The translations under genes and the position numbers were made by a program. Below are positions 13,639-22,517 of a stretch of 27,734 nt of DNA, one piece after another. Source of the DNA: a virus (lineage: Duplodnaviria > Caudoviricetes); the IMG/VR virus record IMGVR_UViG_3300011336_000712, positions 1-27,734 of that record, one strand, 5' to 3'. Numbering within the stretch: the stretch's first letter is position 1; each line of letters opens with the position of its first letter. The notes beneath the pieces were generated by a model. It saw only the letters and a program-made list of their open reading frames with translations, made no database searches and was not told where the DNA came from.

Positions 13639-14007
13639 TTATGCGGCAAAATTTTTATCGTCAATCCTGGGTTTCCAGGGGAGTAATTCTAGTGTATCTT
13701 GTTGCATCCAGGCGATGATTTTTTCTAGTTTTAAACAATCAAAAAAAGATTGTTTTGAGTACCATTCTTGCATTTTTTCACTGGCCTTGTTGGTGTTACA
13801 TCTCCTGCAAGCAGGTAAAAGATTATGGCGATTAGAAGACCCAGATTTAAACCTGGGTATTATATGATCCAGGCTTGTTGCAGGCTCTCCACAATAACCA
13901 CAGGAATGGTTCCAGGATTTATAAATTTCATCTCGAAAACGTTTCTTGGCAAGTTTTGGCGTTAATTCAACTAGCAGGGCAAGGGGCTCGTGCTCGTTGC
14001 AAAACAT
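13639..14007 (-). CDS. HNH endonuclease (McrA-like)
   Basis: CGYCG...SLDHIIP...G.....NLLPACRRCNTNK. Confidence 0.9.
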   Translation of the reverse strand: MFCNEHEPLALLVELTPKLAKKRFRDEIYKSWNHSCGYCGEPATSLDHIIPRFKSGSSNRHNLLPACRRCNTNKASEKMQEWYSKQSFFDCLKLEKIIAWMQQDTLELLPWKPRIDDKNFAA

Positions 14008-17809: not shown

Positions 17810-18853
17810 TTATTTAGCTTGTGCGCTTAACAGTTTCTTTTTAAACTCTTCAGCCTGTGCCTGAGCTTTGTCTGAGGCCAGACTTGAAGCGTACGCATTT
17901 GCGTCAGGAGTCAAGCTAGTTCCAACAGGCGAAAGACCTTGGGCGTTTTGATAAGAAGCCATCGGTGCAGGAACGCTACCAGGAGCAAGTAATGCATTCA
18001 TGCCGGTCTGCAGAGGAGTACCGCCAGGGGCTGCATCTTGGAACCGGGTAAACATCTTGGCTTGCTGTTGATTGGCTGCGCCACCAAAGTAGCTGGACTC
18101 AGCACCAAGACCAGTTGCTCCAGTGAATGCAGAAGGTGCGACTGTTGTGTAATCAACCGGTCCGGTCGGCGCGGCGGTGGCAAGCGGATTAGAGGGATTG
18201 AAAAGTAAGCTAGTAGGCTGAGCACCAGCAAATGCACCCATCTCAGTAGGTTGGCCCATGGCACCTGCGTTGAGAGTGCCTTGAATTGCATCGTAACCCG
18301 ACTGGCCAGGCTTCACTTTAGCTGCAAGACCGCCGTGCTTTTGTGCCCAGATCTGCATGCCAATATCACGAGCGGCATTCATTTCTTCTTGGGTCTTGGC
18401 ACCGGCACGTGCACGTTCGTAACGCTGAAGCTCAGGGTCTTGTGCGGTGAGCTGAGCAACGCGTGATGCTTCTTGCTGGTATGCACGTTCGACGGCAGGG
18501 GAGTAGGAACCTTGCTGACCTTGGGTAGGAGCAACTGAATAACCGGCATTACCGCCACTGCCACCACGGTTCCCTAAACGCAGCTCAGCATCACGGTAAG
18601 ACTCGCCTCGCCGATCTTTTGGAGGGATAGCGCCCCACTGTGGCTTTTGTGCTGTATCTCCACCAAGAGATAATGCAGTGCCGAGCGCTCCAAGGATACC
18701 GCCACCAGCAAGCTGAGCCGCAGACATGCCTCGATTAAGTAAGGCGCCGGCAGCAGGTGTAGCCTGTCGTAAGGTGAGTCCTGCAGCGCTACCGCCAAAA
18801 CGACTTGCTAATCCTGGAATAGCGGACATACCGCGAAGAAGTGCCGGGTTCAT
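17810..18853 (-). CDS. A/G/Q-rich putative internal virion protein
   Basis: ATG at 18853 with GGAGGT RBS; composition like ejection/internal proteins. Confidence 0.7.
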   Translation of the reverse strand: MNPALLRGMSAIPGLASRFGGSAAGLTLRQATPAAGALLNRGMSAAQLAGGGILGALGTALSLGGDTAQKPQWGAIPPKDRRGESYRDAELRLGNRGGSGGNAGYSVAPTQGQQGSYSPAVERAYQQEASRVAQLTAQDPELQRYERARAGAKTQEEMNAARDIGMQIWAQKHGGLAAKVKPGQSGYDAIQGTLNAGAMGQPTEMGAFAGAQPTSLLFNPSNPLATAAPTGPVDYTTVAPSAFTGATGLGAESSYFGGAANQQQAKMFTRFQDAAPGGTPLQTGMNALLAPGSVPAPMASYQNAQGLSPVGTSLTPDANAYASSLASDKAQAQAEEFKKKLLSAQAK

Positions 18854-18855
18854 AA

Positions 18856-19317
18856 TTACCTCCAAAGCTCATGTAAATAAAGACGAGTGCCAACCGAGAC
18901 ATCGGCAGGTCCAGGTAGTGCCTGGATGAATTCAGCACCAGAGCGTTCGTAACGGTAACGAGCCTGGAACGGATCCTTGTAGTTGGGAACGTAAAGAATG
19001 CCAGCTAAACGGTTTGTTTCGTAGAGATAAACCTCGTCCCAAACCTTTAATGCTTCTTTGGCATTGCTAGACCGGATAGTACGGTCAACGTCGCCAGCAA
19101 TACTTTCAAGTCGAGTAGAAGGTGAAGTTGCGACCTCGGTCTTCTTCTCGGCGGTATCACAACGACCAATTTGAATAGCAATTTTATCGTAGAAGTACGA
19201 ATCTGGGACTGTATTCATGGATTCTTCAAGCCGACTGTAGTCACCAGCGGGCACCGACACGGTAAAATACCCTAGATGGTAACGGACTCTGCTTTTGTCA
19301 AAATCAGACAGTTGCAC
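18856..19317 (-). CDS. Putative head-completion/adaptor-type protein; first 30 codons supplied by HNH cassette 1
   Basis: GTG at 19317 lies 7 nt after GGAGG (19325-19329), whereas the ATG at 19323 is only 1 nt from it. Product inferred from size and position. Confidence 0.75.
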   Translation of the reverse strand: MQLSDFDKSRVRYHLGYFTVSVPAGDYSRLEESMNTVPDSYFYDKIAIQIGRCDTAEKKTEVATSPSTRLESIAGDVDRTIRSSNAKEALKVWDEVYLYETNRLAGILYVPNYKDPFQARYRYERSGAEFIQALPGPADVSVGTRLYLHELWR

Positions 19318-19836
19318 AACCATGCCTCCAGTACAAACATTCTAAATCAGTAAGCCCATGGCCAAACGAGAAATTAACCCACAAACAGGCAAGCACTACG
19401 TTTTTGGAGACGTACGACAAGATGGGTATATTTTTAGGCAGTGGGGCCGAGTAAAAGCAGATGGATTCCAACAAGCCCTATGGCTGAGTCCCAAGGCTTT
19501 TAAACGCAACAGAGAACAAACACTTTGTTATCACCGAGAAAAAACAAAAGAGCTTAGAAACTGGGTGAATAAACTAAAAATATTCTATGGTTGCGCAATC
19601 TGCGGATACAATCAAGAGCCAGAGGGTCTAGACATTGATCACTTGCGTGACAAATCTTTTAATATTGGAGGCGAAATAAAAACAAACAAAAGCCGAATTA
19701 TCAAAGAAATACAAAAATGCCAAATTTTATGCGGAACTTGTCACAACATAAAAACAAGAGCCCCTGAAAAATACGCTCAATTAATAAAACAAAAAGGGGA
19801 AAAATGTTTAGATATCAATCAATTTTTAAAACAAGA
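19228..19836 (+). mobile_element. HNH cassette 1: endonuclease plus recoded replacement 5' end of the target gene
   Basis: Bounded by a protein-level direct duplication (19228-19317 vs 19837-19926); AT-rich; nuclease antisense to all neighbours. Confidence 0.8.
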
Positions 19837-19849
19837 AAGACGAGCGTAA
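19358..19849 (+). CDS. HNH-family putative homing endonuclease 1
   Basis: GCAICGY...LDIDHL...KCQILCGTCHNIKT His-Me/zinc motif; N-terminal INPQTG...GDVRQDG domain. Confidence 0.85.
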   Translation: MAKREINPQTGKHYVFGDVRQDGYIFRQWGRVKADGFQQALWLSPKAFKRNREQTLCYHREKTKELRNWVNKLKIFYGCAICGYNQEPEGLDIDHLRDKSFNIGGEIKTNKSRIIKEIQKCQILCGTCHNIKTRAPEKYAQLIKQKGEKCLDINQFLKQERRA

Positions 19850-19926
19850 TCGCCCGCCGGGACAGAAACCGTGAAATAGCCCAGGTGATACCTGACCCTA
19901 CTTTTGTCAAAGTCAGATAATTGCAC
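19819..19926 (-). pseudogene. Orphan 5' fragment of gene 18856-19317
   Basis: GTG start; translates MQLSDFDKSRVRYHLGYFTVSVPAGDYARL then SCFKN*. 29 of 30 aa match the intact gene. TATAAT box at 19948-19953. Confidence 0.92.
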
Positions 19927-19975
19927 TTCTAACTTGCGTATCTTTCAATTATAAATGCAAAGAATCCCTTGAAAC

Positions 19976-20650
19976 TTAACCTTGGTAAGGATTTGAGCTG
20001 ATGTATTGTTCCAGCATTTCTTGTGCCAAGCTGCGCCTAGGGACCATAGCAGAAGCTGCCATCTGTTCAAACATAGATTGTTGTAAAGTCTTTTGCTTGG
20101 GTTGTACCAGGGATGCTCCGTACATCATGGCTTGTACAAAAGAATCCATATTGGATCCGGTGTTTTGTGCGTTGGACGTTGGCGTTTGATTACTTGTAAA
20201 TTCGGCAGCCTTGCCAAGGCTTGCCATGTGTCCAATACCAACTTCGTATTTATTGTCTCCCGTTTTAAATGTTGCCAGATTTCCGTAACCCCCTTGGTCA
20301 GCAAGAGGTGTAAATTTGCCTGCACCTTCCATATATACAGGCGTTCCTTCGGGAAGGGCCCAGTCTTCCCCTTGATGGAAAGAAGATGCTCCAGCAGTAG
20401 GTGCGGTGCGAGGACCAAATTTAGATGTGACGGCTACGTTGGAAGCTGGATTTAAAACCAGTTGGCCTTCTTTGTTTTTGATAATTGCAGGAACCTTTTG
20501 TTCGCCAATGCGTAAACCAGTTAATGCACTGCGAATAGTACTTGGGTCAATGTGTTTTCCCGTACCAAGATCTTTTACGTATATATGGCCATGGGGACCA
20601 GTGGAGGTTCCGGTACTGCCGATATTTCCTAAGAATGCAATGCCTGCCAT
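19976..20650 (-). CDS. M23-family peptidase domain protein, circularly permuted
   Basis: GSTGTSTGPHGH at the N-terminus precedes TSKFGPR...HQGED...GTPV...GGYGN...GHM. Confidence 0.8.
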   Translation of the reverse strand: MAGIAFLGNIGSTGTSTGPHGHIYVKDLGTGKHIDPSTIRSALTGLRIGEQKVPAIIKNKEGQLVLNPASNVAVTSKFGPRTAPTAGASSFHQGEDWALPEGTPVYMEGAGKFTPLADQGGYGNLATFKTGDNKYEVGIGHMASLGKAAEFTSNQTPTSNAQNTGSNMDSFVQAMMYGASLVQPKQKTLQQSMFEQMAASAMVPRRSLAQEMLEQYISSNPYQG

Positions 20651-20677
20651 TATTCTTTTATTTTTAATTTTAAGACT

Positions 20678-20701
20678 AAAAAACCCCTGGTTTCCCAGGG
20701 G
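20678..20701 (-). terminator. Rho-independent terminator after the orphan 3' end
   Basis: Minus strand CCCCTGG-gaaa-CCAGGGG-TTTTTT. Confidence 0.9.
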
Positions 20702-20716
20702 CCAGTAGGAGACAAG

Positions 20717-20749
20717 TTAAACGCGGACTAAGTCGGCAGCAAGTACGGC
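20717..20749 (-). pseudogene. Orphan 3' end of gene 21268-21681
   Basis: Translates AVLAADLVRV*; the intact gene ends AVLAADLIRV*. Confidence 0.85.
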
Positions 20750-20794
20750 AATAAAACGTTTCAGGTGTTATAGTTTTATTTTGCTATCTTAAAA

Positions 20795-21253
20795 ATGAAA
20801 AGAATTAATCCAAAAACTGGGGCATTTTTTAAACACGGCGACTGCAGGGAAGACGGCTTTATTTTTATTGGTTACAACTTTAAAAAAATTAAACAAGACG
20901 GAACTTTTTTAGAGGTATGGATGAGTCCCGAACAACAAGAAAAGAAAAAAACCTATGACAAAAAAAGATCTCAACGTTTGTCTTCTGAAAACAGAAACTG
21001 GATGAACAATTTAAAAATAACAGAAGGTTGCGCATGCTGTGGGTATAACGAACACCCCGAGGGACTAGATTTTGATCATCTTTACGATAAAAAATTTAAC
21101 ATTGGACGAGGGGGTACGTTTAGCAAAAAAAGACTTGAAAAAGAAATAAAAAAATGCCAGGTTCTCTGTGGCACATGCCATCACATAAAAACAAGAAATA
21201 AAGAAAAATTTAACGCCATAATGAAAAAGAGGGGTGTTGCCCCTCTTGGTTGA
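20795..21253 (+). CDS. HNH-family putative homing endonuclease 2 (paralog of 19358-19849)
   Basis: GCACCGY...LDFDHL...KCQVLCGTCHHIKT; N-terminal INPKTG...GDCREDG domain. Confidence 0.85.
   Translation: MKRINPKTGAFFKHGDCREDGFIFIGYNFKKIKQDGTFLEVWMSPEQQEKKKTYDKKRSQRLSSENRNWMNNLKITEGCACCGYNEHPEGLDFDHLYDKKFNIGRGGTFSKKRLEKEIKKCQVLCGTCHHIKTRNKEKFNAIMKKRGVAPLG
21224..21247 (-). terminator. Terminator embedded antisense in the 3' end of HNH 2
   Basis: Minus strand AAGAGGGG-caaca-CCCCTCTT-TTT, 20 nt after the stop of gene 21268-21681. Confidence 0.7.
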
Positions 21254-21267
21254 GTTATGCGTTTAAA

Positions 21268-21681
21268 TCAGACCCTTATTAAATCGGCTGCCAAGACCGC
21301 ACTCCAGTCAACCCTTTTGATTTGCTTTAACTGCTCGAGGCTGTTAAATCTCTCACCCGATAAGGACATCTGTAGATCTTTGATTTCTCGGGCAGTCTTC
21401 AGTCCAATGCCTTTGATATGATCTGCGATCATTTGGGCGGTGGCTGAGTTGATGTTCAAGCGAGTGTCCGGAGGAAAAGTACGGGGCTCTTCTTGTGCCG
21501 CTTTATCTTTTACCTGAAGAGCAGTCACCTTTTTGGTAGCTTGCTCGTCAGGGATAAGTTCGGTTTTGTAAGCAGTGTAAAGGCGACCGTCCTGATCTTC
21601 GACCATGAACCAATCGCCGTTATCCCATTCACTTACAATCTTGACGCGAGCGCCTGTTTTTTTATGCTGATGAAGAATCAT
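21268..21681 (-). CDS. Helix-hairpin-helix (ComEA-like) domain protein
   Basis: LNINSATAQMIADHIKGIGLKTAREI...FNSLEQLKQIKRV HhH signature. Confidence 0.8.
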   Translation of the reverse strand: MILHQHKKTGARVKIVSEWDNGDWFMVEDQDGRLYTAYKTELIPDEQATKKVTALQVKDKAAQEEPRTFPPDTRLNINSATAQMIADHIKGIGLKTAREIKDLQMSLSGERFNSLEQLKQIKRVDWSAVLAADLIRV

Positions 21682-21719
21682 AAAGACCAGATTTTCTCTC
21701 TGGTCTTATATTAACCTAA

Positions 21720-22517
21720 TCAGCTAACAGTGCGGCCAGTCAGGTAGCCATCGATGTCCTCGTAACCAGGGGCATCATCGGGCTGGATGTAGCACACTTC
21801 CACGACCAGGTAACCGGTGCGGCCAGCGTTGGAATCAGCGGTCGAGATGTAGAAACCACCGGAAGTAGCGGTAGCGTTACCGGAGTCCTTAGCGAACACT
21901 TTCAGAGTGGTACCAGTGGTGGCTGCGTAGTAGCACACACCGCCGGAGACGCCAGCAGCGCCGGTAGCAGTGATGAACGGAGCGGTGCCAAAGGCTTGGG
22001 AACCACCAGCGAAGTAGATCTTGCCAGCAGCGTCACCAGACACGGTGGAGGTCAGGTTGGCCTGAATCACACCTTCGCCAGTGCCAGAGGCAGCCGTGGG
22101 GCCGCTGGAGTCGCGACCGAAGGAGATGATGTTGCCAGTAGCGGCATACACACCGGAAGCCACACGGCCATCACCCCAGCCAGAAGCAACGGAGATAGCA
22201 GCGCGATACACGAAGGCAGGCTGGGTGGTGGTGCCAGAGATCACCATGCCGGTGATGTCGGTACGAGTGTCATCCTGGCGGTAAGGCGAAGGAATGATCA
22301 CGTTGCCGGTAGCAGCAGGAGTGCCAGAGGTGGCGGTAACAGCCACGTAACCACGCTGTTGGAAGTAACGGTAGCCAGGGGTAGCCAGCACCGAAGTGGG
22401 GCCGCCCTTGGAAGCATCATTGGTGCCATCAGCAGAGGCATCAATGTTCTTATACCAACCGTTCAGAGGCTCTGCCCAGTTACCCGGGTAGATTTTTTTG
22501 GAAGACAAATAGGTCAT
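21720..22517 (-). CDS. Putative capsid decoration / minor structural protein
   Basis: Immediately after the capsid gene with the same strong codon bias; AGGAG RBS. Confidence 0.7.
   Translation of the reverse strand: MTYLSSKKIYPGNWAEPLNGWYKNIDASADGTNDASKGGPTSVLATPGYRYFQQRGYVAVTATSGTPAATGNVIIPSPYRQDDTRTDITGMVISGTTTQPAFVYRAAISVASGWGDGRVASGVYAATGNIISFGRDSSGPTAASGTGEGVIQANLTSTVSGDAAGKIYFAGGSQAFGTAPFITATGAAGVSGGVCYYAATTGTTLKVFAKDSGNATATSGGFYISTADSNAGRTGYLVVEVCYIQPDDAPGYEDIDGYLTGRTVS

Follow-up and report, generated by a model that had tools for sequence, protein, structure and literature searches.

How does a phage gene come to carry its first 30 codons twice, with an endonuclease gene between the copies, and which of the two copies is its own? 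The question is posed by a 27,734-nt stretch of viral DNA (IMG/VR record IMGVR_UViG_3300011336_000712; the window, below, is that whole stretch), which belongs to an S-EIV1-like cyanophage, a freshwater cyanobacterial virus. The gene concerned, here called the host gene, lies on the minus strand (18856..19317) and reads 153 aa from a GTG, the length at which its relatives are likewise annotated. It is a member of phrog_29158 (E 1.9e-77), a family of unknown function in the virion-gene module, and its sole match among 50,697 phage records is in Synechococcus phage S-EIV1 (88%, with the same gene order). The S-EIV1 entry (AHV82232.1; L101, 6058-6465) has an annotated start that apparently lies downstream of the conserved GTG, and its allele has serine at codon 28. 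The host protein has no Pfam match, its predicted fold has a pLDDT of 44.5, and the ESM Atlas gives a weak lead to the head-tail adaptor family PF26075 (0.91, 140 shared features). Upstream lies a hypervariable M23 peptidase gene (19976..20650, minus strand; Pfam PF01551, E 4.6e-8); the gene downstream of the host gene (17810-18865) is also highly variable among relatives in length and sequence.

Between the host gene and the M23 gene sits what we call cassette 1. The intact start of the host gene (19228..19317, minus strand; codon 24 GCT, Ser28 AGT at 19236-19234) is followed by a 40-nt divergent leader (19318..19357) that separates its GTG from the ATG of HNH1, a 163-aa endonuclease gene on the plus strand (19358..19849), antisense to the operon. 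The stop codon of HNH1 (19847-19849) falls within the second, orphan copy (19837..19926, minus strand; Ala28 GCT at 19845-19843), and the two overlap by 13 nt. Comparing 19317->19228 with 19926->19837 codon by codon, we recovered exactly the counts in the initial annotation of this DNA: 10 codons are identical, 19 differ synonymously and one differs in amino acid, which is codon 28, AGT (Ser) in the intact copy and GCT (Ala) in the orphan. Both copies start with GTG, a single codon (codon 17) is identical from codon 12 to 26, and 67/90 nt are identical overall. Judged by sequence, a match of 29 of 30 amino acids 609 nt apart is not chance.

The signals proposed around the two starts lie where they had been placed. 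A TATAAT (19948-19953) stands in the resident leader beyond the orphan (19927..19953, minus strand; one difference from the empty allele L003 in the last 60 nt), and the divergent leader holds TAGAAT (19339-19344) and GGAGG (19325-19329), on the minus strand, as candidate promoter and ribosome site. TATAAT and TAGAAT each end 21 nt before their own GTG, and a TAnAAT ends at that distance in 7/7 distinct replacement leaders (TAGAAT in four, TACAAT in two, TATAAT in one). A sigma-70 promoter scan returned 3 sites against 5.3 expected, none of them at the TATAAT or TAGAAT boxes. We also considered a terminator at the end of the orphan (19858-19839, z -2.6) and rejected it: three other orphans share the hairpin but do not keep the U-tract.

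Where the foreign DNA joins the gene had been predicted as ...CTT|GAA. That prediction is one base off. L003 reads GCA CGT CTG GAA GAA TCC, and an empty-site contig from X8 departs from the orphan at 19838. Since resident codon 30 is CTG, not CTT, the "30-codon orphan" ends in one or more bases that are part of the HNH gene; the orphan comprises resident codons 1-28/29, and its 3′ end (19837-19840) is ambiguous between host and HNH origin.

To decide which copy is resident, we took the 80 viral sequences most closely related to the host protein as a set of empty alleles. All 80 have a single copy of the N-terminus and lack HNH1 at the site, and the orphan is nearer than the intact copy to every one of them. 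The four with an M23 gene 96% identical to that of the window (L003, L004, L006 and L063) differ from the orphan by 2, 3, 3 and 5 nt over 87 nt and from the intact copy by 25-26 nt over the same length. Against L003, the intact gene departs at 21 of its first 30 codons and at none of codons 31-61. A tree of 84 distinct rows, built on only 84 nt columns and with many open forks, places the orphan among the empty alleles L003, L004 and L063 (100/87); the intact copy groups with copies borne by the cassettes of L081, L105 and L128 (99/92). The replacement in the window differs from the L081 copy at 3/90 nt, and L081 has an M23 only 47-49% identical. The polarity first proposed, with the orphan as resident, is thus borne out both by the tree that had been suggested for it and by the distances to empty alleles. 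By these comparisons the orphan is the resident allele and the intact start is foreign, the foreign part ending sharply at codon 30; the host gene is a chimera of cassette-borne codons 1-30 and resident codons 31-153.

We then asked how the cassette is distributed. Searches with HNH1 and a 14-member alignment found 23 other contigs with the HNH1 type. One (L114), in which the HNH is cut and fused to unrelated genes, was left out, and 22 were kept, some of which may be duplicate entries of one genome in two collections. The HNH1 family occupies the same site in 22/22: ten have an orphan, 11 have none and one is truncated. HNHs that are 98-100% identical (L127 and L103 over full length; L147-L149 over 42 residues) adjoin four M23 types that are 25-58% identical to one another, and in each case the orphan is the host's own 5′ end; in L108 and L129 the HNHs are 99% and the M23s 45% identical. 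In 7/10 orphan-bearing contigs (window included), the orphan is 0-5/84 nt away from whichever empty allele has the most similar M23, and the replacement is 21-23 nt away from that allele. The exceptions are L129, whose orphan is 14 nt from its best M23 match, and L128 and L107, which are without a close M23 relative. The same HNH in unlike M23 backgrounds, together with local orphans, implies that at each transfer the orphan is renewed from the recipient and the replacement is copied from the donor. On this evidence, replacement and HNH move together, and several unrelated backgrounds have acquired the cassette.

Two contigs, L106 and L107, have an intact-looking HNH and an intact copy with Ala28 that is 3/81 nt from the orphan; Ser28 and divergence between copies are therefore not universal. 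They form a divergent lineage, with an HNH 89% identical to that of L108, in which the copies were homogenised or which reflects the origin of the duplication. Two other contigs, L023 and L169, lack the HNH and keep the resident leader and 5′ codons, followed by 35 nt that are identical to the L129 replacement and span Ser28. With an M23 as in L129 and the match at codons 22-33, each looks like an excision or an HNH-less conversion product.

Variation among contigs with one donor type bounds the point of exchange. At codons 27-28 their orphans have four distinct pairs (TAC GCT, TTT GCT, TAT GCC and TTC GCC) and after these run into invariant HNH sequence; their replacements are invariant through codon 32 and variable from codon 33. 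By these limits the exchange lies between codon 28 position 3 and codon 33, and we infer a break in the same interval with co-conversion that is very short. The HNH1 stop codon is formed by the complementary strand of host codons 26-27, and in recipients with Phe27 (L103 and L149; protein P0002) that stop is lost and the HNH has a 10-residue read-through tail.

Over codons 24-29 (19857-19840, minus strand) the resident sequence forms an imperfect inverted repeat, whose core (19845..19857) is a candidate recognition region. All six pairs are possible in 32/45 Ala alleles, as against 2-3/6 in 8/8 replacements. Codon 24 is GCG in 41/45 distinct Ala alleles and in 0/8 replacements, and of the alanine codons GCG is the one least used in the gene body (48/751). 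The repeat (19840-19857) is conserved at synonymous sites in resident alleles, where it could act as a hairpin in the mRNA, as a site for the nuclease, or as both.

Codon 28 is the other consistent mark. Replacements have Ser28, encoded by AGY, in 17/19 contigs with a visible intact copy, and Ala28 is found in 11/11 orphans and 78/80 empty alleles; these counts are not independent, because AGY hardly reverts, the replacements form two clades and the rows are related. The change from Ala28 to Ser and the loss of GCG at codon 24 appear as a shared feature of the cassette-borne copies, and Ser28 is a better candidate for immunity than the synonymous changes. At the same time, among about 830 stretches the HNH is absent from 19/27 AGY-Ser28 alleles and 13/13 TCN-Ser28 alleles, and with so many Ser28 alleles lacking an HNH, Ser28 may be plain polymorphism. 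A preference for AGY over TCN serine, selected at the DNA level, was also considered: matches with AGY serine at codon 28 number 27 and those with TCN 13, the latter mostly from one lineage. A replacement shared by L109-L112 and L130-L134 has the rare His2 and Thr21, as does an HNH-free lineage allele (L150/L161/L176). It is 26-27/84 nt from that allele; its distance to the L108 replacement, with Gln2 and Ser21, is 8-10 nt, a pattern of convergence or of very short gene conversion.

The enzyme itself belongs to PHROG HNH families (best phrog_3106, E 3.9e-19); Pfam HNH matches are below the cut-off (best E 4e-4), and no LAGLIDADG family appears among its Pfam and PHROG matches. In the CxxC-DH-CxxCH motifs, C79, C82, D94, H95, N102, C125, C128 and H129 are invariant in 14 homologues. 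Between HNH genes pS is 0.26-0.98 and pN 0.02-0.22, with dN/dS of 0.05-0.11 where estimable, rates that indicate purifying selection on the HNH. A structural model has an active-site loop with pLDDT <50, and its weak best match is the Gme HNH nickase 4h9d (Foldseek E 0.76; Z 3.8, rmsd 3.8, 73 aligned). A group I or II intron or an intein was also considered and rejected: there is no Rfam match at E<=1 over 18700-21800, and the host gene is whole without splicing. A third HNH gene in the window (13639-14007) is canonical (Pfam PF01844, E 8e-10); it is probably resident, because S-EIV1 carries an HNH at a similar place.

A similar arrangement stands on the other side of the M23 gene, which the two cassettes enclose. 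In cassette 2 the HhH gene (21268-21681, minus strand) has a replacement 3′ end (21268..21303); then come HNH2 (20795..21253, plus strand), an HNH1 paralogue 48% identical, and an orphan made of the HhH gene's resident last ten codons and stop (20717..20749, minus strand), followed by the resident terminator-like site (20703-20682, minus strand). The orphan and terminator match the empty relative L063, the empty-site joint (20748->21304) is present in run X5, and cassette 2 occurs in several backgrounds with resident-matching orphans. This is the mirror arrangement of cassette 1, with an HNH paralogue.

What could such an arrangement do? The M23 proteins upstream have a median pairwise identity of 30% (59 distinct proteins from 79 of the 80 loci), whereas the median for the host protein is 95% (43 proteins), a value inflated by the choice of loci for likeness to that protein. 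A nuclease gene between the two would have homology on one side only, and the orphan would supply about 85 nt on the other; the orphan would be needed because the M23 gene is too variable to serve. We consider it quite probable that a mobile cassette of about 610 nt, comprising the HNH, the divergent leader and the foreign first 30 codons, was inserted near codon 29 and spread by homing of the kind known from the WHO elements of yeasts. During mixed infection, HNH1 would cut or nick Ala28 alleles between codon 28 position 3 and codon 33. The left end would pair with the donor's orphan and the right end with the donor's gene body, and copying across would install the HNH and the replacement while the recipient's own start became the new orphan. 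The replacement would resist cutting through Ser28 (GCN->AGY) and the change at codon 24, and its leader would bring promoter function. The saturated synonymous distance would reflect divergence between old alleles, with reduced loss through recombination of the two copies as a by-product. The orphan would likely be a landing pad for spread between otherwise unlike phages.

Other explanations deserve weighing against WHO-like homing. The window is a single metagenomic contig, and an assembly artefact, or a local tandem duplication followed by drift, would also give two unlike copies. The misassembly that the initial annotation had named as a danger did not occur: in X3, an independent riverine metagenome, one 1101-nt contig covers 19167-20267, across the cassette, with 0 differences. 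In X5, a 670-nt contig covers 19198-19867 with 5 differences, and filled and empty sites occur side by side, the joint 19228->19838 omitting 609 nt. Moreover, the intact copy is 3 nt from other phages' copies but 23 nt from its own orphan, and on these data artefact and tandem duplication are already refuted. A more serious proposal, though on balance an unlikely one, is that the synonymous changes were positively selected, an active recoding against recombination between the copies and deletion of the cassette. The initial annotation had stressed that most synonymous sites are changed, but the counts do not support this as a special feature: over codons 1-27 the copies differ at 20/81 nt, against a mean of 22 in random synonymous redraws of the same 81 nt (P>=20 = 0.80). 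Natural empty alleles that encode the same peptide, compared in 654 pairs, differ by a median of 12 nt and by at most 22, and 3.4% of the pairs reach 20. Recoding would fit the observation that replacements average 20.4-22.6 nt from 56 empty alleles, as against a median of 15.3 for the empties, and that at several sites (codons 18 and 24, for example, 0/8) they do not use the commonest resident codon. L023, which resembles a resident/replacement recombinant without an HNH, also fits, as does the comparison of the window with L127, in which the replacement has a pS of 0.14 and the linked HNH 0.77; this low value could reflect recent exchange between cassette types or a constraint on synonymous sites. 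However, the distances are at or below those of random redraws (3rd-15th percentile), saturation between cassette types is seen in the HNH genes as well as in the replacements, and L106 and L107 persist with near-identical copies. By these measures, the differences between the copies are ordinary saturation between old alleles rather than directed recoding.

The role of the orphan can be questioned as well. HNH1 could be an ordinary free-standing intronless homing endonuclease in the space between the M23 and host genes, and the orphan an inert scar of one illegitimate join. In half of the contigs (11/22) the orphan is missing and the HNH 3′ end is joined at the M23 stop codon, so the cassette can persist without one, and the T4 seg and mob genes home without such duplications in the portion of PMC2988022 available. 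Yet the orphans track the local M23 and are renewed in each recipient, which calls for recombination within the orphan at every transfer. The nine orphan-less contigs with a readable M23 have one M23 family (76-100%), with L105 as one further case, whereas the orphan-bearing contigs span M23s 19-61% identical between types; and in each of the two orphan-less lineages, relatives without an HNH already carry Ser28. We find the scar explanation improbable. About as doubtful, and compatible with homing, is the idea that the cassette is a weapon that benefits the phage against co-infecting relatives rather than being selfish only. The target is conserved across the phage group, and interference is reported for a phage intron endonuclease in the accessible part of PMC11620839, but the cassette is rare, being found in 0/80 of the nearest alleles.

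The closest known parallel to the WHO-like homing proposed here is the WHO elements themselves, at FBA1 in Torulaspora and Lachancea yeasts, for which the available text of PMC7282813 describes an experimentally shown mechanism and a partly tested model. There, too, nothing is spliced, and the endonuclease is flanked by a host gene made whole again and by a fragment displaced from the recipient allele. That fragment is "a second region of homology", a second homology arm, and resistance is allelic, arising from differences of which many are in variable codons near the cut. The organisation found here shares the recipient-derived fragment, the replaced end that travels with the endonuclease and the coexistence of filled and empty alleles. 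As far as these sources describe them, WHO proteins are LAGLIDADG enzymes with a zinc finger, related to HO; the elements are nuclear and meiotic, replace the FBA1 3′ half and occur in clusters. Cassette 1 is instead a phage element with a 163-aa HNH that replaces the 5′ 30 codons of a phrog_29158 gene, and it must bring a promoter and a ribosome site; cassette 2 does replace a 3′ end, and no clusters were seen here. By analogy, the cassette would work like a WHO element without being a member of that family. A preprint terms WHO elements a rare third category of homing element (bioRxiv 10.64898/2026.08.13.744650), and the parts of it and of PMC7282813 available for comparison have no mention of phage as hosts of such elements.

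Other systems share some of these features. In fungal mitochondria, mobile endonuclease ORFs come with a foreign C-terminus in Allomyces atp6 and Glomus atp6, atp9, cox2 and nad3 (PMC3630166, in part), and N-terminal duplications in Tremella were modelled as introns (PMC7315562, in part). As here, a foreign gene end arrives with the endonuclease, the displaced native end matches close relatives, and the differences are mostly synonymous; those cases, however, are organellar, mostly C-terminal, and of LAGLIDADG or GIY-YIG type, to judge from the same extracts. The seg/mob intronless homing of T4, in the available portions of PMC2988022 and PMC12724721, likewise involves phage, HNH enzymes, no intron, and a resistant allele beside the gene. 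[quoted passage not shown] The accounts of phage homing endonucleases in PMC12724721 and PMC10448857 contain no such duplication in the sections available. ShiLan, an out-of-frame HNH in actinophage methylases (PMC11855218, available sections), is also a non-splicing HNH insertion in a phage gene with homing patterns, but it is open in the host frame and translated through, while here the host frame closes after the orphan and the spare start rescues the gene. We found no phage description of a cassette that replaces a gene end in the literature searched, mostly the main texts of openly available papers.

We lean toward a broader conclusion, held less firmly than homing at this one locus: that phages harbor a widespread third homing class, in which small HNHs replace either gene end and recycle the victim's end as a homology arm, thereby crossing hypervariable neighbors. 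Two mirror-image paralogues would have done so around one M23 gene, and their pressure would have seeded resistant Ser28 alleles. The locus points to a separate origin of the WHO logic in phages, built on an unrelated nuclease and applied to a 5′ end, for which expression signals have to be supplied; a single hypervariable flank offers a rationale for the design. With the target bounded to about 15 nt, a candidate resistance change named, and natural intermediates on hand (orphan lost, copies homogenised, an HNH-free resistant recombinant), cleavage and homing become directly testable with a protein of 163 aa. The two ends of such phage genes would have different histories, and gene-end orphans may serve as a searchable footprint of homing.
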